Virus record (IMG/VR): IMGVR_UViG_3300020045_007943
Coordinates: 1 to 43,691 of that record
DNA length: 43,691 nucleotides
Source: a virus
Taxonomy: Duplodnaviria; Caudoviricetes
Reading direction: 5' to 3' (one strand)
Part shown: piece by piece, positions 2,912-38,187 of the stretch
Position numbering within the stretch: the stretch's first letter is position 1
Layout: each line of letters starts with the position of its first letter
The notes under the pieces: generated by a model
The model's database searches: none
Seen by the model: the letters and a program-made list of their open reading frames with translations, nothing else
What the model was told of the DNA's origin: nothing
Position numbers and translations under genes: made by a program

Positions 2912-3151
2912 TTATGAGGAGGTGATTATCTTAGCGGTTATACGTTCGTTTCCGATATAGAGTATAGGATCATCGGTAATCCTATTAAGCTGGATTTCGT
3001 GTGCATATCCAGTCGGGGTCTTCGCTACAAACATAGCGGTTACTGTTGAAAAATAACCGCGTGTCTGTATTTTAGTCCTGTCTACCTGTACGGGGTACGT
3101 GAAGGTTAGGCGGGTGTTGGGTTGCCTAATAGGTGTCATGTAGCCAGCCAT
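2912..3151 (-). CDS. Hypothetical protein
   Basis: ORF coupled to the SSB stop codon. Confidence 0.6.
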   Translation of the reverse strand: MAGYMTPIRQPNTRLTFTYPVQVDRTKIQTRGYFSTVTAMFVAKTPTGYAHEIQLNRITDDPILYIGNERITAKIITSS

Positions 3152-3525
3152 TAGAATGGTAAATCATCTTGTTGTTGCTCCGCGGCTGGCGGTGTGTAAG
3201 TTTGCTGTACCGGCTGTTGATAACCATATTGCGGCTGCTGAGCTTGCTGTGTGGGTTTATCTATTTTCCAGCCTTGTATGCTGTTGAAGTATTTTGTTTC
3301 TCCCTGCGGGTTAACCCATTCACGGCCTCTTAGATTAATGTGAACAGTTACAGGCATTCCTACTTGGCATCCATTAAGTAAGTCGCACTTATCTTGGGTA
3401 AATTCTACCATAATATGCTGCGGGTATTGTTCATCACTGGTTACAACCACCTCACGCTTACGAAACCCATTAGCGCCAAATGCTTTTGTGTCTTCGAGCA
3501 TTCTTATTCTTCCTTTAATTTCCAT
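3151..3525 (-). CDS. DUF3127 family single-stranded DNA-binding protein
   Basis: MEIKGRI...FRKREVVV..EQYPQHIMVEF...LRGREW...YFNSIQGWKI and SSB-like acidic tail DDLPF. Confidence 0.88.
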   Translation of the reverse strand: MEIKGRIRMLEDTKAFGANGFRKREVVVTSDEQYPQHIMVEFTQDKCDLLNGCQVGMPVTVHINLRGREWVNPQGETKYFNSIQGWKIDKPTQQAQQPQYGYQQPVQQTYTPPAAEQQQDDLPF

Positions 3526-12335: not shown

Positions 12336-12785
12336 ATGACAAACGAACAACTAAAACAGCAAGCCATACAGGAGGCGTATGGGGACAAATATAAACGGTT
12401 AAGCCCTTTTATAGACAAAGAAGGTTATTGCATAATGTACGATGACAAAGGCGAAAAGATAAGCCCTAATTTTAATGAATTAGGCTTTACTCAGGAATAT
12501 GTACAGGAGCATTTATGCTCAGGTTTGTTTGCTAATGGATTGCTACAATGGCGCCCTAAATCTCTTTCAGGCCTTCAGAATAACAACGGTTGGACGCGCA
12601 TAGAGCAGTATGGCAGTAATTTGCCTGCTAAATTTGGTAAATATCAACCTGGATTATTAGGCGAAGATGGCACATGGACACAATTTTCAGAAATAATGGA
12701 CATGGACGAACTTATTGAATATGCTTGTGCAGGTCAAATCACCCACTACCGCCCAGTAGTTGAACACCCTAAACCTGTGTATTAA
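12336..12785 (+). CDS. Hypothetical protein with DUF551-like C-terminus
   Basis: GWTRIE...LP...ITHYRPV; start taken at MTNEQ. Confidence 0.65.
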   Translation: MTNEQLKQQAIQEAYGDKYKRLSPFIDKEGYCIMYDDKGEKISPNFNELGFTQEYVQEHLCSGLFANGLLQWRPKSLSGLQNNNGWTRIEQYGSNLPAKFGKYQPGLLGEDGTWTQFSEIMDMDELIEYACAGQITHYRPVVEHPKPVY

Positions 12786-13611: not shown

Positions 13612-13673
13612 TATATTTGTAATAGATAAAGCCCGATGTAATATTCGGGTTTAATTTAATTTATTTTGTAATA
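13612..13673 (+). promoter_or_regulatory. Promoter (-7 box) followed by a hairpin and TGTAATA repeats
   Basis: TATATTTG at 13612-13619; AAAGCCCGA...TCGGGTTT hairpin; TGTAATA at 13618, 13637, 13667. Confidence 0.65.
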
Positions 13674-26525: not shown

Positions 26526-27159
26526 ACTCCTATCCCGATTACGCCGCCGTTCCGTTACCCCTAAGTCGCATATACTTTACTCAAACTGCGATATACCCGC
26601 ACGGCTATTCTTCAATAACCTAAGCGCCGGTGATTTGTCCGTATTGGGTACTGGCACAAAGGAAGAACTACAAGCTGCCTATTACAGCATACTTGACGAG
26701 TATTGCGAACTGGACAATAACACCGCTTTTATAGAGGCGTTTAAGAAAGAGGAAATAATTAGCCTGATACAGTCGGATATAGCCAACATCCGATCCGCAT
26801 TGCAGGTTATTGTGTACGCTGAATTAAGTAAGGATGAGCGTATATCTATTATTGATAAATTAAACGAGTGGAAGCCACCGCACGCAGTCGTAAGGTTTGA
26901 CAAAGACAAGCCTATTAATGAAGAAGTGGTTAGGATTAGTAAAAAGGTAATAGGGGGACTAAAAAACTATCTTAACAAAGAGATAAGCACCCGTAAAAAG
27001 CGGATTGAAAAGGTTAAGCGTACATTTGAAGCTGACTGTGTTTCAATACACGCGTGCTTGGGAACAAAAATAGATAGTGATGTTACACTAAGGTTGTTTA
27101 TTGAGTACAGTAAATTGGCAATAGAAATGAATAAAAAAACAAGTCATGGCAGAAAATAA
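26518..27159 (+). CDS. Putative tail assembly chaperone
   Basis: Helical protein immediately upstream of tape measure. Confidence 0.45.
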   Translation: MLKLLSRLRRRSVTPKSHILYSNCDIPARLFFNNLSAGDLSVLGTGTKEELQAAYYSILDEYCELDNNTAFIEAFKKEEIISLIQSDIANIRSALQVIVYAELSKDERISIIDKLNEWKPPHAVVRFDKDKPINEEVVRISKKVIGGLKNYLNKEISTRKKRIEKVKRTFEADCVSIHACLGTKIDSDVTLRLFIEYSKLAIEMNKKTSHGRK

Positions 27160-30100
27160 AGGCGAATTTATAGACATATTAAGCCCGTCGGCATTATCGG
27201 ACTTAGCTAAGGGTATTAAAAGCACGAAGGAGCTTGTTAAGGAAATAAATAAAGCCCTTGATGCTCAGGGTAAACTTAACAACAACGGTAAAAGCCCGTC
27301 AGCATCCGCAACTAATACCAGTAGCAACAATTCGTCTACTGCCACCGCCAACAAACTTGCATCAGAGAACGCCAGGCTCACACAACGCCTTGCAGATTTA
27401 AAGAAAGCCGAAGCATTAGAAAATGCAAAGCTACGTGTAGAGATTGAGAACCTAAACAAGCAGCAAAAACAAGCAGCTAAAGAAGCGTTAGGCGTATTAA
27501 CATCATACCAAAAGTTATCGGCAGAACTTAACGAGCTTAGAGGTGAGGCTAAGGCTGTTGCCGCCGATATGTTTAACCTTGAACAGGCGGGAGAAAAGAA
27601 CAGCGACCAATACAAAGAACTTGCCGCTACATACGCTAGATTATCACAACGTGTGGGAGTTTTGCATACAGGATTGACGGGTATAGATAGGAGTTTAGGC
27701 GACCATAGGCGCGAGGTTGGTAACTATGAGAATGCTTGGAACGGATTAGGCAATGCTATTAATCAGCTTAGCCGTGAGGCTCCTGCTTTTGCTGTTAGTA
27801 TTAGCACCGGTTTCTTAGCAATATCAAATAACATACCTACTCTTGTAGATGAGCTTGGGCAACTAACGCGCCGGAACAATGAATTAAGAGCGCAAGGGCA
27901 ACCAACTGTTAGTGTATTAAGGCAGTTTGCATCCTCTTTGTTTAGCTGGCAGACGGCATTAAGCGCCGGCGTAACATTGCTTACTTTATATGGGGCTAAA
28001 ATAATTGATTTTGCGTTCGGGGTACAGAAAGCCACAAGGCAAATAGACCAATTACAAGCGGCTCAGGAGCGTTATAATGATACGGTAGTAGAAGTTACCA
28101 CAAATAGCGAAAGAGAGCTTACAGCGTTGAACAGGCGCGTTGCTGTAGCACAGGACGTAACCAAGTCGGATAAGGAACGTGCAGCCGCAGCAAAAGAAAT
28201 TATATCCCAATACCCTGGCTATCTTGACGGGCTTACTGAAGAGCAAATAAGGTTAGGGTATTCCGCTAAAAACAATAAGGAATATGCGAAGCAAATACAG
28301 GCTTTAACCGCTGACATTCAAAAAAGGGTCGAGGCAGAAGCTAAGCAGGGGGCAAACCGTGAAAGCTTAAAGATTGCCGCTGAGCTTGAACAGGAAGCAA
28401 AAGTAAGGGAGCGTGTAAACAAGGCTGCTCAGGATTACTATAATAAATATGGTGATGATAGCGCTTATGCTAAATCAAGTGTTGACGCTCTAAGGAGACA
28501 GGTTAAGGCTCGTCAGGAATTGCTAAAGGAAGACCAAACGTTTATTGAAAAGTTCGGTGAACTTGGGGTTTCTGAAACAGGACGCGTTGATATGTTAGGG
28601 CTATATGAACCTGCACAAATAACAGAACTGCAGAAAAGGGCGCAGGAGTTAAGACGTGAAGTTGCTAAACAAAATGGCGAGATAAACCAAACATTTAAAG
28701 ATACGTCTCTGCTTGATTATAAAGCGGAAGGCAAACAGCAAATAGAAAGCTTAGTTGATTATTACGCCAGCAGGTACGAACTTATACGCACACAGTTAGA
28801 AAATGAGGCTAATGCTCAAAAGCTGATTATAGATGATGAGGCGAAAAGCCTAGAGCATCGAAACGCGGCAAATCAAGAATACCACAAAATACAGTTAGCA
28901 TTAGCTAAAGAGGCTTTTGTAGAACAAAAAAGATTATTAGATTATAATTTAGCAGAAGAAACGGCTAAACTACAAAAACGTGTTAAAGATAAGGAAATAA
29001 CAGAGAAAAATGCTAACGGGGTTATATACACTCTGCGTAGGCAATACCATTTTGATTTGCTTAAAGCAGAAGAGGACAACTCGGAAGCTATAAAGAATGT
29101 AAACAGGTCGCTTGCGGAAAGCCTTAAAGGTGTATGGCAAGAAATGGATCTTAAAAAGCAAACTAACCTTATTGATGAGAGGGAATTAGAGAATACACGC
29201 TCGTACGTTGCCGAACTTAAAAATATAGTTGATGGTAATGAGGATTATCAAAAAATATTAGCCGCCGAAAAGGAATTAAACGAAGCCAATGTAAGCCTAA
29301 CACAGGAACGACTGCAAGCTGAGGAACGGGCTATTGAAGCAGAATTATCGGCTTTCCCTGAGCGTGAAAGGAATAGCCAGGCTTACTTAGAACTACAGAA
29401 CAAACTTGTAGCCAAGACAAAAGAACGTGCAGAGGTTGATAAAAAGAGCGCAGAGGAAGCTGCCGAAGCAATGGCTAAGTTGCAAAAAGCTACCCAGGAC
29501 TATTTAGGTAAGTTTACAGACTTAGGACAATTCGGTTTTGAAGGACTTAACCCATTCCTTAAGTTAGAAGAGAATGGAAAAACAGCATTCCAAAACCTCA
29601 TGGCTGGGGCTAATACAACCGCGGAGAAAGTGGCCGTGGCATTTAACTCTATTAGCACCGTAGCTACACAGGCTATCGACTTCTTAGCCCAAAACCAACA
29701 AGCCCGCTTTGATGCTCAATATGCTGGCTTAGAAAAACAATATGAGTTAGACCAACAGTTTAACGCTAAAGGGGAAGAGGCGAAGGCAGAACTACAGAAG
29801 CAGTACGATGAAAGGCGACGTGAGATAAGGATAAAAGAGGCGAAGGCAGAAAAGGAGAACGCAATATTTAAGGCTATAATAAACACAGCCCAGGGTGTTA
29901 CTTCTGCGCTTGCAACGGCAAACATACCGCTATCAATTATTATCGCGGCATTAGGTGCTGCACAGGTCGCGAGTATTGCCGGTCGACAAATACCTGCTTA
30001 CGAGTTTGGTACAGCTAATCACCCGGGTGGTGCAGCTATTGTTGGGGATGGAGGACGCGCTGAGCTTATACACCAACCAAGTAGTGGGTGGAGCGTATCT

Positions 30101-30367
30101 CCAAGTGTACCTACATTAATGAACCTTGAACGAGGATCGGTTGTATTACCTGATGCAAATGCTTACAGGCGTGAGATCCCTGCCTCTATGGGCAGCGGTG
30201 GGGTAAGTATAGACTATGACAGATTAGGAGCGGCTGTAGGTTCACAAATACCTGCGCTTACAAGTATAGAGCTTACTAAAAGTGGTTTTAATTCCTATGT
30301 GGTAAAAGGTTCGGCACGTGCTAAATCATTCAATGATAGGATTAGTAGTGTGGGTAGAAAAATATAG
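27146..30367 (+). CDS. Tape measure protein
   Basis: 1073 aa, A/E/K/Q-rich coiled coil, REVGNYE motif, C-terminal AYEFGT...VGDGGRAELI. Confidence 0.9.
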   Translation: MAENKGEFIDILSPSALSDLAKGIKSTKELVKEINKALDAQGKLNNNGKSPSASATNTSSNNSSTATANKLASENARLTQRLADLKKAEALENAKLRVEIENLNKQQKQAAKEALGVLTSYQKLSAELNELRGEAKAVAADMFNLEQAGEKNSDQYKELAATYARLSQRVGVLHTGLTGIDRSLGDHRREVGNYENAWNGLGNAINQLSREAPAFAVSISTGFLAISNNIPTLVDELGQLTRRNNELRAQGQPTVSVLRQFASSLFSWQTALSAGVTLLTLYGAKIIDFAFGVQKATRQIDQLQAAQERYNDTVVEVTTNSERELTALNRRVAVAQDVTKSDKERAAAAKEIISQYPGYLDGLTEEQIRLGYSAKNNKEYAKQIQALTADIQKRVEAEAKQGANRESLKIAAELEQEAKVRERVNKAAQDYYNKYGDDSAYAKSSVDALRRQVKARQELLKEDQTFIEKFGELGVSETGRVDMLGLYEPAQITELQKRAQELRREVAKQNGEINQTFKDTSLLDYKAEGKQQIESLVDYYASRYELIRTQLENEANAQKLIIDDEAKSLEHRNAANQEYHKIQLALAKEAFVEQKRLLDYNLAEETAKLQKRVKDKEITEKNANGVIYTLRRQYHFDLLKAEEDNSEAIKNVNRSLAESLKGVWQEMDLKKQTNLIDERELENTRSYVAELKNIVDGNEDYQKILAAEKELNEANVSLTQERLQAEERAIEAELSAFPERERNSQAYLELQNKLVAKTKERAEVDKKSAEEAAEAMAKLQKATQDYLGKFTDLGQFGFEGLNPFLKLEENGKTAFQNLMAGANTTAEKVAVAFNSISTVATQAIDFLAQNQQARFDAQYAGLEKQYELDQQFNAKGEEAKAELQKQYDERRREIRIKEAKAEKENAIFKAIINTAQGVTSALATANIPLSIIIAALGAAQVASIAGRQIPAYEFGTANHPGGAAIVGDGGRAELIHQPSSGWSVSPSVPTLMNLERGSVVLPDANAYRREIPASMGSGGVSIDYDRLGAAVGSQIPALTSIELTKSGFNSYVVKGSARAKSFNDRISSVGRKI

Positions 30368-30475: not shown

Positions 30476-30658
30476 TTAACATCCTAATTTATTTTTTTCG
30501 TGTTCATACTGTGCTTTTATCTCTTTGATAGCGGCAGGGTTTCCGTTAGCATTCTCTATGCTATTTAGGTATTGCTGGTACAAATCATCAGCTTCCTGAT
30601 CGCAGTTGGTGCAGCTTGTCATAAATATAAGGGCTGCGATTAGTAGTAGGTGTTTCAT
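30476..30658 (-). CDS. Small lipoprotein
   Basis: MKHLLLIAALIFMTSC lipoprotein signal. Confidence 0.7.
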   Translation of the reverse strand: MKHLLLIAALIFMTSCTNCDQEADDLYQQYLNSIENANGNPAAIKEIKAQYEHEKNKLGC

Positions 30659-30987
30659 AATGCTTTTAATTTTTGTTGATATTCATACTTTATCTTTTCA
30701 GGCGTTGCGGCTATATTAAAAAGATATTTAGTTTTAGAGCCATCTTTAATACACTCATCTGCTTTTGATATTGTATTTAAGTAGCTATTTGTTAGTTCTG
30801 ATTTTGAATACCTAACCCAATACGGGTGATTACTTGGCAAATCACAAGGCCTGACACCTGCAGGTAGTTCTAAATTAAGGTTTTCTTCGCAGTATTTTAT
30901 ATCTTTGTTTACCGCTGATACCCATTCATCCCAGTTATTAAAATCGGCGCTGAATAGTTCTTTATTGTTTAGAGATACGAATATCAT
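30655..30987 (-). CDS. Hypothetical protein
   Basis: Coupled ORF in antisense cassette. Confidence 0.6.
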   Translation of the reverse strand: MIFVSLNNKELFSADFNNWDEWVSAVNKDIKYCEENLNLELPAGVRPCDLPSNHPYWVRYSKSELTNSYLNTISKADECIKDGSKTKYLFNIAATPEKIKYEYQQKLKAL

Positions 30988-31237
30988 TATAAATTTTGTT
31001 AGCGATTATTATTGCGGATTCGCTGGCTTCTGTACGTGATAATGCAGCACCTAAAAACTTATCGATGCTCCATTGAAACAATTTACCATTGGTTTTTATA
31101 TTAATATAAATGCCTACACTGTCAAAAAATTTAGTACTATAGGCAAGAAATATTAAGTCTAAATCCATCAATTCAATTGGCAGGGATTTTATTACCCACG
31201 CCTCAAAATGTTCCTTTGCTTTTCCTGTTAGTATCAT
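30962..31237 (-). CDS. Hypothetical protein
   Basis: LTGKAKEHFEAW...FFDSVGIYI pattern. Confidence 0.7.
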   Translation of the reverse strand: MILTGKAKEHFEAWVIKSLPIELMDLDLIFLAYSTKFFDSVGIYINIKTNGKLFQWSIDKFLGAALSRTEASESAIIIANKIYNDIRISKQ

Positions 31238-31635
31238 AGCTCACGTTGTTTTATCATTGCATCGGCTTGTTTGTATGCGTCTTGTGAAATCCATTCGCTA
31301 ACAGTCAGTTTTTTAATGCTTGCTATATAACGATATCTTTCAAATTTTGCATCGGTGTCTATACCTGTAATCATACCTTGCATCGCTTTAGACGCAAAGT
31401 AATCTCTTAAAAATATATTGTTTTCATTTTTAACTTTTTCGTTTGAAAATAATTCTACAATTTCAAATTTAAGAAATTCGCTTATTTTTATTAAATCAGA
31501 TATAGATATACGTGAGTCGTTTTTCTCAAGTCTGCCATAGTTAGACTGAGTTACACCTAAAAAAGCACCTAATTGCTCCTGAGATACATTTTTGCTTTGA
31601 CGTATAAGTTTTATTTTGTTGCCTATTGTATTCAT
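31234..31635 (-). CDS. XRE-family HTH regulator fused to a small phage domain
   Basis: IGNKIKLIRQSKNVSQEQLGAFLGVTQSNYGRLE; C-terminal LRDYFASKAMQG...AYKQADAMI. Confidence 0.85.
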   Translation of the reverse strand: MNTIGNKIKLIRQSKNVSQEQLGAFLGVTQSNYGRLEKNDSRISISDLIKISEFLKFEIVELFSNEKVKNENNIFLRDYFASKAMQGMITGIDTDAKFERYRYIASIKKLTVSEWISQDAYKQADAMIKQREL

Positions 31636-32027
31636 ATAAATAGTCTTTTAATCCAGTTAGGTATGCGGTCTAGGCTTTCAAGATATGCATCCTGCCTTTT
31701 TAGTTGCTCATTAGCGCGTATTAGGGCTTTGGAGTTTTGCCTTAGCAATGCTCTTGTTTCCTCTACATCGCCAATAATAGCCTGAACATCGTTTTTAAAC
31801 TCTTGAAGTTTAGAATCAAGTTCTTCTTTTTTAATATCGTGAGCGATGCTTATTTCTCTTGTTATATCACAAGATATGCTAAGAGGATTATGTTTAATAT
31901 TTACCGGGATTTCTTTCAGTATGATGGTTATGGCAGGCTCTTTAATTTCTTTTAGCCTTATCACTTCTTCACGCTGCTTGCGTAAATTGTCGTACTCGCT
32001 TATTGGAATGGTTACTGTGTTTATCAT
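31632..32027 (-). CDS. Coiled-coil hypothetical protein
   Basis: TVTIPISEYDNLR start, IPNWIKRLF end. Confidence 0.65.
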   Translation of the reverse strand: MINTVTIPISEYDNLRKQREEVIRLKEIKEPAITIILKEIPVNIKHNPLSISCDITREISIAHDIKKEELDSKLQEFKNDVQAIIGDVEETRALLRQNSKALIRANEQLKRQDAYLESLDRIPNWIKRLFI

Positions 32028-32049
32028 TTTTTATCGGTGTTACTCAAAA

Positions 32050-32430
32050 TTAATCATAAACTCCTATTTCGATAAAATCGACGCTTTCAGAATAATATCC
32101 ATTGCTTGCACCAAACCAACGAACATCAACATATCCTTTTATTGTTGCAAATCTATAAAAAGTATAAGTGAAAGATTCCTCATACTCAGGAACTTCTCTA
32201 TTTTTTATATAATCTTCGTTTTCATATTCTTCTGATAAAGTTAGGGGAGTAAATAAAAGGTCTTTTAAATCTCCGTTTATATCATCTATTTCAACGCTTT
32301 CACAACAATCCTGTTCATGATACATTTTAAAGCTCCTGCCTTTGTCTGTAGTGAAAATTATTTCCGTTTCTTCTGTATTAACTTCTATTTCAATAAGAGT
32401 TAATCCTAATAAATCTTTTACTTGTGCCAT
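32050..32430 (-). CDS. Conserved acidic phage protein
   Basis: [11 protein letters not shown]...[26 protein letters not shown] motif. Confidence 0.8.
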
Positions 32431-32451
32431 ATAATTTCAATTTATTTAAAA

Positions 32452-32541
32452 CATAAAACCCGTATAATCATTATGCGCATCACTGCATAAATCCTATACG
32501 GGCTGTATAATTTCTTTAAGTGCCTAAAGTGATGCGGCAAC
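32452..32541 (-). ncRNA. Candidate structured leader/small RNA with complementary loops
   Basis: Two hairpins with 8-nt complementary loops between a -7 box and a U-tract. Confidence 0.5.
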
Positions 32542-32545
32542 GGTA

Positions 32546-32574
32546 CAAACTTACACATTTTTTATTTACTTTTA
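32546..32574. promoter_or_regulatory. Divergent promoter boxes
   Basis: TAAGTTTG on minus strand (32546-32553); TACTTTTA variant on plus strand (32567-32574). Confidence 0.55.
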
Positions 32575-32578
32575 CAAC

Positions 32579-35185
32579 ATGGTAAAGAATTATTTTCATT
32601 TTATCACTTTGGGCGAGTCTAACCCCATTGAGGTGCGCGAGCCATTTGGCGGTGATGCGGTAGGATTTTCACTAAAGCGTGATGCACAGCGCAAAGGCAT
32701 TGATACAACATTCGCTGGAAATAGCGAGGCTAATTTTAGCATCCCAAACAGCGATGAGTATGCCTTTGATAAGTTGCTAACATCCTGGCTTATGAAAGGA
32801 TACGAAATGAATGTAAAGCACAGTATAGACTTCGGTACGGGGTTAACAGTTGTCGGAAATGTAGATGGCAAGACGCTAAAAACCGATACCGTAAATGAGA
32901 TTAAATTTACTGTAATACAAGAAACTGAGCAGGCTTTGTTTAAAAGGCGTTTTGACACTGCTGTAGATTTGCTTTCAGACCCGGTGCAATGCCCGGTTAC
33001 CAATGTGTTGCTTAAATCGCCTCCTGTTACGCTAAAAAGCAGCTGGAAGCTAACGGCAAGCAATTACATAATGTACCCTAATGGTAACACTATCTTAAAC
33101 GGGTATTTTAACCCGTTGCAGGTACAAGTAGATTATGATATTAAGGATAGCCTTACATGGCTTAGGCCTGATGCGTATGTGAATGGGAGCAACGATTCGT
33201 CAGATTACACCATGCCGCCTCAGAACTTCAAGTTATTACGTGCCGCTAACAACCTGAATAATGTTCAGGCTTCGTTTAGGCTGCATATGAAAACTGAATG
33301 GACGAATATAAACCCTCCACCAGTAGCGATGCAGGTTATAGGCCGCTTTGCTGTTGGTGAGGGCGACGAAACATTTAACGAGTTCCGTACTCTAATACAA
33401 AACGGAATTACGTTCTACAATACCGGCGCGCTTACATCAACTAATCAAAGCTATGAATATGATGGTACGTTTAACCTAACACTACCTAATATGCGCAGGG
33501 GGCAGGTGCTTTATATGGTTTGGCTACACGGTGCAGGCAGTGATATTGCCCTATCTAAAAATACGTTCTACGAGGCTAAGTTAGATATAAAAGCTTCTGA
33601 AACAGGATACAGCACCGTTATACCAATGATACGCTTACGAGATGCTATCAAATATGCGGCAAGCGGACTGGATGTTATTTGCCCGCGTTGGGAGTTTGGA
33701 GGCGAGTTCTACAACCAGTTTATAACTACGCCGTCATTGATGCGTAAAAAGTACACTACTTTTAATATCACGAATAAGACTATATACGATGAAATTATAC
33801 GCCCGGAAGTAAACGGAGATTACATTATACAGCCTGACAGTAAAATATTTGTTGGTATTTACGATGACTTTTACAGGGATTTCCAGTGTGCCGACTTTAA
33901 GCAGACTTTGTTTGAAGATTTTGAGCAAGGTAATGTAGAGGATACGCCTAACCAATTCAAATTATCATTCAAGGAATATGCCTCCCAAAAGGAAATTACA
34001 AAAGATAACAGCGGACAAATTACCAGTGGAGAGACAGCCCACACAATCAATAACAATAGCGTTGAGGATACTCGCGAGGTAAACATAGGCGGTGTTAGGG
34101 ACGGCATTTCAATTGCAGGTTACCAACAGGCTATATTTGAGCTTACAAGCGATGAAGTAAGCCAGGATGATGACAAGGTAGTAATTATTGATTGCGTTCC
34201 TAAAACAGGTTCGGTTAAGTTTACAGAAACAAGCCAGTTAAGGCATAAGGTTGATGAAGATGTAGACAACAAGCTTACGTTAACAATCGCCACCGATGAA
34301 GGCGAAACATTTAGTTGGGGCGATTTAGGCATTAATATTACCGACAACTTCAACATCCTTAACGGCGATAACACAGGGCAGTACACCGTGTTTAATATTG
34401 ATGGATTGGATATAGTGCTGCTAAAAGTGGGCGGATTAGATCCTGTGGCTATATCAAGCCTAAACACCACTTACGAATACTTTGTAAATAGCAGCGTACA
34501 GGTAATGAACCGAACCAACGAGGGCTTTACATCAATATCCGGCATAGACGACCCTACACGCGCTATTAACTTAGATTGGACGGTGCGCCGTATTATGGAG
34601 CGTTTCTACAAGCAGTCATTAGGTACGGATACTTTCTTTGCCGATGACAAAACAATGAAGAACACCATATACAAAAATAATCGTGCTGCTACCATAAACG
34701 GCGTACGTGAAGATTCGGACTTTACACCATCTACCCCTATTTTAACGCCATTCACTCGTAATTTAACGGTCTTAGCCACTTTAAACGAGTTCTTCGATAT
34801 GCAGGATAAACTACGTTATCAGCGGGGCTATGTGCGTTGCTATGACCCCGATAAATGGCCTGTAGATTTATTCCTAACTGAAGCAAACTGGACTGTGGTT
34901 AAGCGAGGAACTTTAGAGGGGCAAATAGTACTTAAAGGGCAGGTTATGTACAGGGAGTTCCTGGTTGATATTATAGCTATTGGTGGGGTAGTAACCTTTA
35001 ATAATGACATCACCCCGTCTGCGTTTAGTTTCGCTGACAAGGGTGATGGATGGTTTGAATTCTACGATGCGACAGGCAAACGTTTGTTTAGCCGTGTGCA
35101 ATATAACCGTGTACGCATTAACGGTGGCAATGCAGCTGTTAGTTCTGAGGAATTGGGTATATGGCTTAGTCAGTATTCTCTGTAG
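32579..35185 (+). CDS. Large tail tip/hub protein
   Basis: 868 aa beta-rich protein, first structural gene after tape measure. Confidence 0.65.
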   Translation: MVKNYFHFITLGESNPIEVREPFGGDAVGFSLKRDAQRKGIDTTFAGNSEANFSIPNSDEYAFDKLLTSWLMKGYEMNVKHSIDFGTGLTVVGNVDGKTLKTDTVNEIKFTVIQETEQALFKRRFDTAVDLLSDPVQCPVTNVLLKSPPVTLKSSWKLTASNYIMYPNGNTILNGYFNPLQVQVDYDIKDSLTWLRPDAYVNGSNDSSDYTMPPQNFKLLRAANNLNNVQASFRLHMKTEWTNINPPPVAMQVIGRFAVGEGDETFNEFRTLIQNGITFYNTGALTSTNQSYEYDGTFNLTLPNMRRGQVLYMVWLHGAGSDIALSKNTFYEAKLDIKASETGYSTVIPMIRLRDAIKYAASGLDVICPRWEFGGEFYNQFITTPSLMRKKYTTFNITNKTIYDEIIRPEVNGDYIIQPDSKIFVGIYDDFYRDFQCADFKQTLFEDFEQGNVEDTPNQFKLSFKEYASQKEITKDNSGQITSGETAHTINNNSVEDTREVNIGGVRDGISIAGYQQAIFELTSDEVSQDDDKVVIIDCVPKTGSVKFTETSQLRHKVDEDVDNKLTLTIATDEGETFSWGDLGINITDNFNILNGDNTGQYTVFNIDGLDIVLLKVGGLDPVAISSLNTTYEYFVNSSVQVMNRTNEGFTSISGIDDPTRAINLDWTVRRIMERFYKQSLGTDTFFADDKTMKNTIYKNNRAATINGVREDSDFTPSTPILTPFTRNLTVLATLNEFFDMQDKLRYQRGYVRCYDPDKWPVDLFLTEANWTVVKRGTLEGQIVLKGQVMYREFLVDIIAIGGVVTFNNDITPSAFSFADKGDGWFEFYDATGKRLFSRVQYNRVRINGGNAAVSSEELGIWLSQYSL

Positions 35186-35429
35186 CCTCGCGCTCGGTTA
35201 CTATCCAGTTATGACCATTAATATGCCCACTTTCATTTTCAATGTTAGAAATTCTATGCCCCACATCATCTTTTATGTAAAAACCCCACCCTTTTGATTC
35301 GTCTCCGCTATTTTTATCTGCCCAATAACCTATTACAGTATATTCCTTACCCTTTGTAATATCTGTTGCATCTATAGGCGCCACCACCTTTAGCGGCTTA
35401 CCTGTTCCTTCAATGTGTATGTGTTTCAT
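35166..35429 (-). CDS. Hypothetical protein
   Basis: ITKGKEYTV..FYIKDDVG motif; converges on the tail gene with 20-bp overlap. Confidence 0.6.
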   Translation of the reverse strand: MKHIHIEGTGKPLKVVAPIDATDITKGKEYTVIGYWADKNSGDESKGWGFYIKDDVGHRISNIENESGHINGHNWIVTEREATENTD

Positions 35430-35596
35430 TTTGCCTTTCCTTTTCGTGTTGTTCAATTTGTTTCTTGTACTGATTTTCTAAGTGATGCCACCTGCCTTTA
35501 TAATATCCAATGAAGTATGCTAAATGGCTTATCAGTGTTATTATAGATATTACAGGTATTATTGCTAAGTATATCATGTTGTCATATGTAAAACGT

Positions 35597-35860
35597 TTAG
35601 TTGTTGATTACAAGTAGTGAGGTCTTATAATTTATTTCATCAAGAGTTAACTTTTGCTGATTTAGCAATTCTTGACAATTAATATAGTCTTGTTTCTTTA
35701 TTAAATGACTATAGTTTTTAAATTGTGAATGTAAATCTGTTATTTCTTTAATCAAAATCTCATTTTTATAAAGGCTAATTTCATCTATACAGCTATATCT
35801 TTTATTGCTGTTTAATAAAAAACACACAACAACTGAACAAAGTATTAAAAACATTTCCAT
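35597..35860 (-). CDS. Hypothetical protein with N-terminal hydrophobic segment
   Basis: MEMFLILCSVVVCFLL. Confidence 0.55.
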   Translation of the reverse strand: MEMFLILCSVVVCFLLNSNKRYSCIDEISLYKNEILIKEITDLHSQFKNYSHLIKKQDYINCQELLNQQKLTLDEINYKTSLLVINN

Positions 35861-35865
35861 AAGTT

Positions 35866-36240
35866 CTAAGGTGTTAATTTTAAAGCCTCTTGTAATCCCG
35901 TCTCTAAAGCGTCTTCGTAGGTGGTAAATCTGTTGTCTATGTTATAGTATTCGCCGCCTTGTATCTTAAAAACACAGACTCGGTAATCTCCTGAGTTAGC
36001 TGTGCAGTCAATTATTATATGCAAGCCATGCACCTCCCTGATCCATTTTTGTAATATTGATTGTCTAACAGCGTGTGTTTTTTCAAATGTAGCTCCCTTT
36101 ATAAAATCTTTAGTTAATAAAGCTTGCGGGGTATATCCGTCTTTGTTTCCTCTATTGTCGTAGTATGGGCTACCCACAGAATTAAAACCCTTTTCTTTAG
36201 CCAGCTTAGCCGTCTCGAATGTGATTAGTTGTTCTTGCAT
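35866..36240 (-). CDS. Hypothetical phage protein
   Basis: ITFETAKLAKEKGF...QSILQKWIREVH...TYEDALETGLQEAL pattern. Confidence 0.75.
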   Translation of the reverse strand: MQEQLITFETAKLAKEKGFNSVGSPYYDNRGNKDGYTPQALLTKDFIKGATFEKTHAVRQSILQKWIREVHGLHIIIDCTANSGDYRVCVFKIQGGEYYNIDNRFTTYEDALETGLQEALKLTP

Positions 36241-36244
36241 ACCT

Positions 36245-36565
36245 TTAACAATTACCGCCTGCAGACGCAGACCATAGATGACTACCATATTTCACTTCTC
36301 CGTAACCTGGCGTTACCGGCTCGTCAAAACCCATGTGAGGATTGTATAAGCTGTTAGGTCGCCATTTTACAGTGTATATCTGCCCCTGAAAGCGTATTAC
36401 CGCCGAGCCTGTTTGTACTCCCCAAGTTCCCGACTGGCAGAGTATCTGAATATCGGACGTTATTTGGTAAGTATATCCTGAATCTGTTGTGATTAGATAC
36501 TGCTTGTTGTTACCGTTGTAAACGAATGCCACAATAAGGGCGAAAATTGTAATTAGTGTTTTCAT
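36245..36565 (-). CDS. Putative exported protein
   Basis: MKTLITIFALIVAF signal-like N-terminus. Confidence 0.55.
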   Translation of the reverse strand: MKTLITIFALIVAFVYNGNNKQYLITTDSGYTYQITSDIQILCQSGTWGVQTGSAVIRFQGQIYTVKWRPNSLYNPHMGFDEPVTPGYGEVKYGSHLWSASAGGNC

Positions 36566-36567
36566 TT

Positions 36568-36858
36568 TTAATGTTTATGATGATTAATGCAATCCTGTTC
36601 TGTTTCAAATATTATCTCCTGCCCTGATAATCCTAAATCAATATTCATCAATTTAGCCAATCCTACAAATTGGTTTTTATCTCCTTTTATTATCATATGC
36701 CCCGCAGATTGTAACCTGTTAGGGTCTTCTGTTTTGTGGCATGTAAAAGTATTCGACTGCAATATTTCTGCCATCCTACTTTCTCCAAGCCAACCTTGCT
36801 GAATATCTTTTCTAAAGGGGCAATCTTTACAAGGCTTCTTTACGTTAGGCAGTTTCAT
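36568..36858 (-). CDS. Cys/His-rich phage protein (DUF6283-like)
   Basis: KPCKDCPFRKD...FTCHKT. Confidence 0.65.
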   Translation of the reverse strand: MKLPNVKKPCKDCPFRKDIQQGWLGESRMAEILQSNTFTCHKTEDPNRLQSAGHMIIKGDKNQFVGLAKLMNIDLGLSGQEIIFETEQDCINHHKH

Positions 36859-37286
36859 GCTCCCTTAAGTTTAACCCAGCCCATACTAACCAAATCTTCT
36901 ACGCTTGCATCAAGATATGGCATGGCGTAACCTTTTGAGCGGAGGTAGTCGATCATATACGAAAGATTTTTAACTGTAAGCCAGCACCCTGTGTTTTGGC
37001 AAACCATCCTCTCTATACCTCTCTTCAAATAATTAATGTTGAATTCATTTCGGTCTTCACCATCATCCCAGTACATAGTGTCTTTAACTATTTTTTTAAC
37101 CTCAATAGCATCTTCATCTGTAATGGCTGATAGAGAGGTGAGTTCTAATATTGATTTATCAAAAAGTTTGTCTATAAGATATTCATTTACAACTTGTAAT
37201 CCAAATTGCTTAGGCTGAGTCTTTCCTATTCGGTGCCCCCAGTACTGCGCAAAGAATCGCGCTTTGTTTTCTAAATTATTTTCCAT
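36855..37286 (-). CDS. Hypothetical phage protein
   Basis: LTSLSAITDEDAIE...DYLRSKGYAMP pattern. Confidence 0.75.
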   Translation of the reverse strand: MENNLENKARFFAQYWGHRIGKTQPKQFGLQVVNEYLIDKLFDKSILELTSLSAITDEDAIEVKKIVKDTMYWDDGEDRNEFNINYLKRGIERMVCQNTGCWLTVKNLSYMIDYLRSKGYAMPYLDASVEDLVSMGWVKLKGA

Positions 37287-37427
37287 TAGTTTAATTCAAA
37301 AAGGTTAGTATATTAGTTTTGTACATCTTTGCCATTCCTGTAACGGCACTTTGAAAGTCGCAGAATATAGAGTTAGAATTTAGCGTTCGGAACTCATAAG
37401 TGTGCGTTTTAGGGTCGAATAGTAGCA

Positions 37428-37583
37428 TCATAGCTCATATCTTTTTAAATATCGTTTAAACAATTTGTGAATGTGGGCATATCTTGATACCGGCACGCGA
37501 ATAGCTAAAGTCCTGCTTTCTTCGCCGTACTTGTTGGTATTACCCGCACCTGGTCTTTTACCCCCGTGTGTGTGTTTAGTCAT
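37428..37583 (-). CDS. Small DNA-binding protein (AT-hook-like plus ribbon-helix-helix-like; 51 aa, not in ORF track)
   Basis: MTKHTHGGKRPGAG...TLAIRVPVS. Confidence 0.7.
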   Translation of the reverse strand: MTKHTHGGKRPGAGNTNKYGEESRTLAIRVPVSRYAHIHKLFKRYLKRYEL

Positions 37584-37587
37584 AGGT

Positions 37588-37794
37588 TTAAAGGCTTTCG
37601 CCTGATTGGTTTAATAAAACTTTTTTATGCCGATTACTGACAGGCATCCAAGAAAACCAACCTGATTGATAAAACCCAAGGTAACCATATTCATTCTTTG
37701 AAACCAATTTCGGGTTTGGTGATTTTTCAAGAGTATTTATAGCAAAATCCCCCTCTTCAATATCCCCATCACTTACTGTATAGTCCATACTCAT
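37588..37794 (-). CDS. Hypothetical protein
   Basis: ORF in antisense cassette. Confidence 0.55.
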   Translation of the reverse strand: MSMDYTVSDGDIEEGDFAINTLEKSPNPKLVSKNEYGYLGFYQSGWFSWMPVSNRHKKVLLNQSGESL

Positions 37795-37803
37795 TATTTT
37801 TAA

Positions 37804-37821
37804 AGGGCGGTGTTAACCGCC
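37804..37821. other. Intergenic GC hairpin (terminator or processing site)
   Basis: GGGCGG-TGTTAA-CCGCCC. Confidence 0.5.
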
Positions 37822-37826
37822 CGGGG

Positions 37827-38078
37827 TTAGTTAATAAAATGTAATTCGTGTACGTCTGCGTAACCTATTTCTTTTACCCAACCTTTTAACATAAATTCGG
37901 TAATATTATACGCTAATTCTTTTCTATCCTCCCTTGTATCTATTTCCCATTCTTTTTGTAAAACAGTAAGATTAACTACATTTTTGCCTCCTAATTTTTC
38001 TTTTAAATCATTAGCAGATTTAGCAGACATTAAAATGCTAAATAAGTTCCATGATTTTTTAGCGTGTATATCTTCCAT
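37827..38078 (-). CDS. Hypothetical protein, first gene of antisense cassette 2
   Basis: ORF downstream of a -7 box. Confidence 0.65.
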   Translation of the reverse strand: MEDIHAKKSWNLFSILMSAKSANDLKEKLGGKNVVNLTVLQKEWEIDTREDRKELAYNITEFMLKGWVKEIGYADVHELHFIN

Positions 38079-38110: not shown

Positions 38111-38187
38111 CAAATATACACCATATATTTGAATACGCAAACGAAATCAAATATATTTTTACATTATTTTTTTTAGTGGTATATTCG
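38111..38187. promoter_or_regulatory. Divergent promoters with inverted-repeat operator candidate
   Basis: TATATTTG on minus strand (38111-38118); ATATATTTGA-N14-TCAAATATAT (38123-38156); TATATTCG on plus strand (38180-38187). Confidence 0.6.

Follow-up and report, generated by a model that had tools for sequence, protein, structure and literature searches.

A predicted kissing-loop leader in a 43.7-kb phage genome is a member of an apparently undescribed family of portable phage leaders

Genomic setting of the leader

The window, i.e. the whole stretch of DNA that was analysed (43,691 bp), is an entire virus record that is 97% complete. It encodes terminase, portal, capsid and tape-measure genes, and Bacteroidota-type TAnnTTTG promoter boxes are present. 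Among cultured phages, Harreka_1 of Olleya has the closest terminase (a match of 57.9% that covers 56% of the protein), and thus a Flavobacteriia host is likely. A minus-strand accessory cassette of six small ORFs (30476–32430) is found between the plus-strand tape-measure gene (27146–30367) and a plus-strand gene of 868 aa (32579–35185), for which a tail role is suggested by position. The first gene of this cassette, which is also the first gene that the leader would control, encodes a DUF7448 protein of 126 aa (32050–32430, minus strand; Pfam PF24240, E 1.5e-26). The remainder of the cassette comprises five small ORFs (30476–32027, minus strand), one of which (31234–31635) carries an HTH_3 domain fused to a C-terminal phrog_2201 domain of unassigned function, its product being the sole HTH regulator match among the proteins scanned. 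The leader sits in the 148-bp gap between the cassette and the tail gene, and a covariance-model search of the genome returned this single clear copy. At eight loci with DUF7448 relatives (43–52% identity), the 250 nt upstream of the gene hold no such leader. Two further sites in the window were observed. A second minus-strand accessory cassette (35166–38078) interrupts the tail module and has a promoter box at 38118 without a kissing-loop leader. On the plus strand at 13612–13660, a promoter box is directly followed by a strong hairpin with an A/U tail, ahead of HNH and DUF6291 replication genes, and no loop partner was seen for it.

Anatomy of the leader

The leader extends over positions 32448–32553 of the minus strand. 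The original prediction described a promoter box and two hairpins with complementary loops at this site, and its coordinates all agree with the minus strand, exact to the base. The TTG at 32575–32577 (minus strand), which precedes the −7 box by 21 nt, is a candidate −33 element by the spacing rule of Bacteroidota promoters, and adjoins the initiation codon of the tail gene on the plus strand. The −7 box itself, TAAGTTTG (32546–32553), is of the Bacteroidota sigma-A type TAnnTTTG, and its letters T, A, T, T, T and G are invariant across 35 aligned members of the family described below, partly due to selection of members on the box. As this box is placed at −12 to −5 (PMC9723704), transcription would start at 32541. 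Hairpin 1 (32521–32539; 4 bp, 11-nt loop, predicted −4.0 kcal/mol) would then begin at +3, i.e. at the extreme 5′ end of the RNA, and presents in its loop the pairing segment L1, GCAUCACU (32528–32535), which is defined by its sequence and by covariation of the loop helix. An A/U linker of 18 nt (32503–32520) holding a semi-conserved AAAGAAAUUAU motif (32517–32507) leads to hairpin 2 (32459–32502; predicted −18.5 kcal/mol), which consists of a lower stem, a GGAU/UGAU internal loop that likely forms tandem G-A pairs, a 6-bp upper stem and an 8-nt loop. This loop, L2, AGUGAUGC (32477–32484), is the exact complement of L1 over 8 nt, or 9 nt on counting one adjacent stem base per side, with a predicted duplex energy of −10.8 kcal/mol. 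On dinucleotide shuffling of the 5′ segment, a complement of at least 8 nt arises in 8/5000 cases and one of 9 nt in 1/5000.

The minimum-free-energy fold of the RNA retains both hairpins at −29 kcal/mol (z −3.50), and 0/200 shuffles are as good. Hairpin 2 is closed by G+C pairs and followed by a U-run (32448–32458), so that the form of an intrinsic terminator is predicted, with a U-run that is imperfect in the window (6 U among the first 8 nt). A simple terminator scan, in which the loop limit was 8 and internal loops were disallowed, did not call this hairpin. From 32541 the predicted RNA would measure ∼83 nt to the base of hairpin 2 and ∼92 nt with the U-run, and the ATG of the DUF7448 gene follows hairpin 2 at a distance of 28 nt.

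A leader family with covarying loops

Related leaders were sought with a loop-blind pattern, built from promoter core, linker motif and terminator base and free of loop letters. At least 110 distinct viral matches were obtained (120 loci listed). Among those listed, 39 carry the full box and 32 of these have a terminator-like hairpin, in the order TAnnTTTG box, small 5′ hairpin, A/U linker, long terminator-like hairpin, U-run and ATG. In 31/32 of the listed matches with box and hairpin, not all of which are independent, the 5′ segment and the hairpin tip share a 6–9-nt complement, as compared with 112/992 for a control in which partners are swapped. These 31 members use 26 different pairing strings. 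When 14 members were aligned by sequence alone, RNAalifold chose the loop–loop helix as the consensus helix, in which 6/8 pairs are changed on both sides. When all four helices are specified for the same 14 members the loop helix is 93.5% paired, and 0/500 shuffles match either the observed pairing or the observed covariation. Shifting the partners out of register lowers loop-helix pairing to 38–49%. Loop covariation among homologous leaders, which had been put forward as a check on the predicted pairing, is thus borne out, and the comparison of sequences supports a loop–loop pairing that is real and selected. The variability of the loop helix in the 14-member alignment is no higher than that of the stems, and no loop column reaches 90% in the 35 aligned members.

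A similar trend is seen in 24 phage records, where a partner of at least 7 nt is present for 36/106 hairpins with an upstream promoter box versus 10/380 without one; these records were picked partly for holding a member, which enriches the partner count, and a few record ends were left out. The hits L225, L278, L408 and L498 and the TTAAAT row of G044 were excluded from the family counts as false or unrelated, and one true copy, CCGCCAAG in G001, is missing from the scoring. Scans with loop-specific patterns gave mostly chance matches (10 real leaders among the 120 viral loci listed, 94 of them distinct), and on genome contigs none of the 120 loci listed was accepted. The loop-blind pattern gave 119 distinct matches on genome contigs, of which 20 had a full box, 2 a hairpin and 0 a partner. 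With the covariance model, leaders were found in 0/5 and 1/151 genomes of the genus Flavobacterium, which is weak evidence of rarity, as scoring covered just 150 or 25 candidates in each genome. A pattern search of metagenomes gave one match that was judged to be noise.

Variation in length, linker and internal loop

Sixty-three members were compared. The 5′ hairpin is predicted at dG ≤ 0 in 53/63, and the sense strand folds better than the antisense strand in 59/63, which indicates that the element works as RNA rather than DNA; a DNA-hairpin or origin role is ruled out by the same strand asymmetry. The distance from L1 to L2 is 40–54 nt in 80% of members. Linker length does not rise as hairpin 2 grows (rho −0.56), a negative correlation that partly reflects the placement of the stem boundary. 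Long linkers form an extra A/U hairpin in 13/17 cases (7 of the 13 from one subfamily), short linkers in 0/36 and shuffles in 44%. As the long linkers fold, the effective free tether has a median of 18 nt.

Three alternatives to attenuation by the RNA itself bear on these features. It is improbable, though the linker and internal loop invite the idea, that a phage or host protein bound to the A-rich linker motif or to the GA/GA (loop-E-like) internal loop decides the outcome, with the loop pairing merely building the fold. The linker motif AAAGAAAUUAU (≤1 mismatch) is indeed enriched, occurring in 8/30 members found without using it versus 5/65 and 8/388 control hairpins, and GA is present on both sides in 23/28 large internal loops, 5 of them having AGUA/GAA. 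However, a large internal loop is absent from 35/63 members and the motif is loose, and against a dedicated protein there is also the diversity of the carrier phages, among which no common neighbouring gene was seen.

The compactness of the element, with its own promoter, 5′ hairpin and terminator and a box-to-U-run length of 86–105 nt in 80% of members, would also suit a discrete small RNA of ∼90 nt acting as a decoy, an antitoxin or a loop-to-loop multimer, the downstream genes being expressed by leak or from other promoters. We regard this as doubtful, at about the level of the protein model, in that the leader is invariably just ahead of a gene on the same strand, accompanies first genes that change, and beyond the linker offers no conserved unpaired stretch that a target or a protein could recognise. 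Still less probable is a post-transcriptional fold that guards the 5′ end of the mRNA or limits ribosome loading ∼20 nt downstream, in which the U-run would be an A/U-rich Bacteroidota initiation context. A short and steady distance to the ATG (an ORF start within 110 nt of the hairpin in 63/63 members scored, median 20 nt) and the imperfect U-runs of some members are in its favour, but a G+C-closed stem followed by 5–8 U in the next 8 nt, as found in 59/63, is the shape of an intrinsic terminator, and in the window neither L1 nor L2 pairs with the translation initiation region.

Several departures from the common layout were noted. The leader at L537:8611–8690 (+) has a family-type hairpin 2, the promoter and the linker motif, with hairpin 1 and the loop partner absent, and is either a natural deletion or a different switch. 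A promoter-plus-hairpin leader also lies ahead of a packaging-module gene at L138:7675–7771 (+) and L141:7675–7773, as well as in G004, G005 and G010 (before a portal-like gene). Three packaging-module leaders are a strand-exchange variant, in which the partner of the 5′ segment is the 3′ arm rather than the loop of the hairpin. Finally, L271, L282, L318, L263:3000–3060 and L580 near 13650 contain a further conserved GGTAATCTT/AAAACC-like motif downstream of the U-run, ahead of an ATG that lies farther away, and precede a common gene family of ∼65–75 aa.

Carrier phages, first genes and module swapping

Leaders occur in several cultured phages: Cellulophaga phi18:3 at 3058–3156 (−) and 23584 (+), Olleya phage Harreka_1 at 30126 (+), Flavobacterium phage elemoA_7-9A at 10253 (−) and sniff9-2 at 12541 (+) and 13582 (+). 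By the annotation of the records, four cultured-phage leader sites head replication operons. No leader was found in Arctus_1 or P12024S, two of the six cultured phages scanned. The 62 first genes scanned include 7 DUF6291 replication genes, 7 HNH/NUMOD4 nucleases, 4 of primase type, 3 methylases, 2 helicases, 8 others and 31 without a Pfam match.

Close relatives of the phage illustrate how the leader changes neighbours. In L009, the tail protein of which is 90% identical, the leader is identical and the downstream gene differs, identity stopping just past the U-run. In L010 (tail protein 88%), the leader at the same site is another one, with CCGCCAAG/CTTGGCGG as its pair, and the window's leader has its orthologue further down the cassette, where the loop pair is GTCTCAC/GTGAGAC. 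DUF7448 is exchanged for unrelated genes in both relatives. A 250-nt contig of depth 2 from DNA run X1 matches 32445–32549 without differences and has different flanks on both sides, and a contig of DNA run X2 likewise diverges from the window at 32445; these contigs, weak evidence alone, fit a swappable module of ∼105 bp. No RNA run is listed among those that contain the stretch, which bears neither way on expression. From such sequence comparisons the leader is not special to the DUF7448 cassette but portable, and is found ahead of many unrelated genes.

Two observations concern the neighbouring tail gene. At L010:2470–2500 the swap point of the cassette is the tail-gene start codon, and the leader promoter adjoins the initiation region of the tail gene on the opposite strand. 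Extra copies of GCATCAC at 32652 and 32679 were set aside as chance, as they lie in codons of the tail gene and are also present in L010, which has a different leader code.

Loop pairing as a candidate antiterminator

We give about an even chance, on the strength of folding models and of analogy, to the reading that this portable promoter-plus-leader module is a cis transcription attenuator with the loop–loop helix as antiterminator. An attenuator-like placement was part of the original prediction, and is supported by the position of the leader, which separates a promoter from the first cassette gene, together with the covariation of the loops. RNA polymerase would initiate near 32541, and hairpin 1 would form immediately and expose L1. 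L2 would appear ∼45 nt later, at a point where hairpin 2 still lacks its 3′ arm, and pair with L1. The upper stem may close around L1:L2, which would then stretch the short linker, and the lower stem (the terminator proper) would shut slowly or never while polymerase crosses the U-run. Transcripts missing the loop pairing would end as an RNA of ∼90 nt. The proportion of read-through would thereby be set kinetically, and the genes reached would be early or accessory ones that are sensitive to dose, in the window DUF7448 with the rest of the cassette.

When growing transcripts of the window leader are folded in nested fashion, the minimum structure (−18 to −20 kcal/mol) contains the L1:L2 helix for as long as hairpin 2 is a few bases short of completion; the terminator fold (−25.5 kcal/mol) wins once these final bases emerge. 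Across the family, the probability of the L1:L2 helix exceeds 0.5 in 63/63 members at 2 nt beyond L2 and in 51/63 at 7 nt before the stem base, and the helix is kept in 31/63 at 2 nt before the base and in 5/63 at the base. Nested folding cannot score a true kissing complex, and the choice of members by complementarity partly builds in the early dominance of the helix. RNA polymerase hides the last 10–14 nt of the transcript, and therefore the loop helix would persist while the U-run is made. By a crude estimate of spans, the tethers are too short for all helices together in only 12/53 members. The imperfect U-run of the window and the L537 leader, with its family-type hairpin 2 and no loop partner, likewise speak against this reading.

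The guanidine-IV riboswitches provide the closest geometry. These are ON switches (PMC7736828, PMC11611296) in which kissing is proposed to stretch the linker and so block the outer pairs of the terminator (PMC7736828), and for which single-molecule work reports that the kissing loop competes with the terminator as it grows (PMC11611296). It is from this shared topology and the order of events in nested folding that the loop helix is read as an antiterminator.

Feedback in trans

Pairing of the loops between molecules, which the original prediction raised, may occur as well. The same cis switch could be shut in trans if finished leaders, as terminated RNA or as 5′ ends of mRNA, exposed L2 on a complete hairpin 2 and captured the L1 of nascent transcripts that have yet to make their own L2, giving an RNA-only negative feedback that counts transcripts or genomes with a private code for each operon. 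Such an attenuator would be free of ligand and protein and would double as a counter: with a code of 7–9 nt per operon, self-kissing would antiterminate and finished copies would silence new ones. We consider this extension unlikely, yet better placed than the protein-gated and small-RNA models. Antisense attenuation controls plasmid rep genes (pT181, pIP501), which is a precedent, and replication and primase genes are frequent first genes of the leader family. The complete RNA is predicted by folding to free the loop helix and make both loops available. Two to three leader copies are present in 13/24 phage records, each copy with its own loop code, and cross-pairing of at least 6 nt is seen in 0/42 ordered pairs within a genome versus 93/1598 between genomes. 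However, at a rate of 5.8% some ∼2.4 pairs are expected, from which 0/42 does not differ significantly. The loop helix varies no more than the stems do and so gives no sign of diversifying selection on the code, and a trans partner would have just ∼45 nt of transcription time.

Relation to known RNA switches

The original prediction likened the leader to the P4 CI and P1 C4 immunity RNAs, and this likeness was not upheld: the leader has one partner site, no C4-type match in Rfam, carriers that in 18/19 cases are without a tyrosine integrase, and no enrichment of an antisense promoter. The Rfam search proposed for the window matched no family (best E 1 and 4.8, chance level), nor did Rfam 15 match two sets of 20 member loci, the C4-type and IsrK models included. 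A promoter box on the opposite strand within 200 nt is present in 12/62 members versus a background of 17.6%, and none is found within 30900–32964 of the window; a long plus-strand late transcript may run across the leader. The only other 8-nt copy of L1 on the minus strand of the window, at 35488, is upstream of the promoter and at about chance level. Resolvase-type integrases are absent from 19/19 carrier records and neither type is in the 43.7-kb genome; the carriers may have a plasmid-like lysogeny.

The P4 CI RNA (seqA/seqC; PMC4825925), P1/P7 c4 and Gifsy-1 IsrK resemble the present family in being phage leaders with short complementary segments and premature termination. They differ in that an antisense RNA is processed from the leader and has a target on either side, as P4 CI does with the two sites that flank it (PMC4825925), within temperate immunity operons, whereas the leader family has one partner inside a unit of ∼90 nt and mostly integrase-free phages. 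That the leader silences a superinfecting or resident phage in the manner of P4 CI or c4 is therefore very improbable, even though P4, too, ties loop-specific pairing to a premature stop of transcription (PMC4825925) and phi18:3 has an integrase and two leader copies, in that there is a single partner site with none downstream and the leaders are scattered over unrelated operons.

A ligand-binding riboswitch related to guanidine-IV is equally remote. The guanidine-IV (GGAM-1 or mepA) motif and its variant Gd4v share with the leader a loop-joined pair of hairpins of which the second is an intrinsic terminator, predicted in our case (PMC7736828, PMC11611296, PMC9788692), and Gd4v has an optional extra hairpin like the long-linker members. 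This common topology of two pseudoknot-joined hairpins (PMC9788692) argues for kinship, but guanidine-IV loops carry highly conserved nucleotides (PMC7736828), whereas the leader family has dozens of interchangeable codes and implies no ligand; with not one loop position conserved among its members, a ligand is unlikely. The setting differs as well, the leaders preceding replication, nuclease and methylase genes of Bacteroidota phages rather than guanidine exporters. Among the 62 first genes (31 without any Pfam match), transporter families number 0, as do SugE, MATE, GNAT and transaminase genes.

Other systems share single traits. In the pT181 and pIP501 antisense attenuators and the HK022 put RNA, termination close to a promoter is governed by RNA alone, and replication genes often lie downstream. 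The put RNA has neither kissing loops nor a terminator function of its own, and from the pT181 type the leader family differs in the lack of enrichment of a counter-transcript promoter noted above. A weak riboswitch candidate before formate-tetrahydrofolate ligase is similar in that its terminator stem-loop is proposed to form a pseudoknot with the hairpin before it, which would prevent termination, and differs in having a host metabolic gene and a single context (PMC11109978); the main text of that paper has no match for phage, Bacteroid or Flavobacter. In the cobalamin riboswitch, an upstream domain is likewise brought onto the regulatory hairpin by kissing of L5 with L13, and a large ligand-binding aptamer is required (PMC10907184), of which there is none in the leader.

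Significance for Bacteroidota phages

The leader of the window is a real member of an apparently undescribed family of phage leaders and would be a variant of kissing-loop attenuation. No description of the family was found in the literature searched, which holds few subscription papers and includes PMC2864571, PMC9788692, PMC11109978, PMC10690425 and PMC10907184. Four supplementary tables or documents of PMC10690425 likewise gave no match; the family may be among the 10,006 unnamed viral candidates of that study. Little is known of gene timing in Bacteroidota phages, and the leader precedes replication operons of several cultured ones. With the geometry of guanidine-IV and no conserved pocket, it makes the steric model of antitermination testable free of ligand effects, and dozens of natural variants in loop, stem and linker are on offer for this. 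Orthogonal loop codes would in turn be useful parts for Bacteroidota genetics. If the counter reading is true, phages would use the leader as a swappable expression cartridge of ∼105 bp for timing their replication, nuclease and accessory genes, and the family would offer a naturally occurring set of orthogonal RNA switches for use in Bacteroidota.
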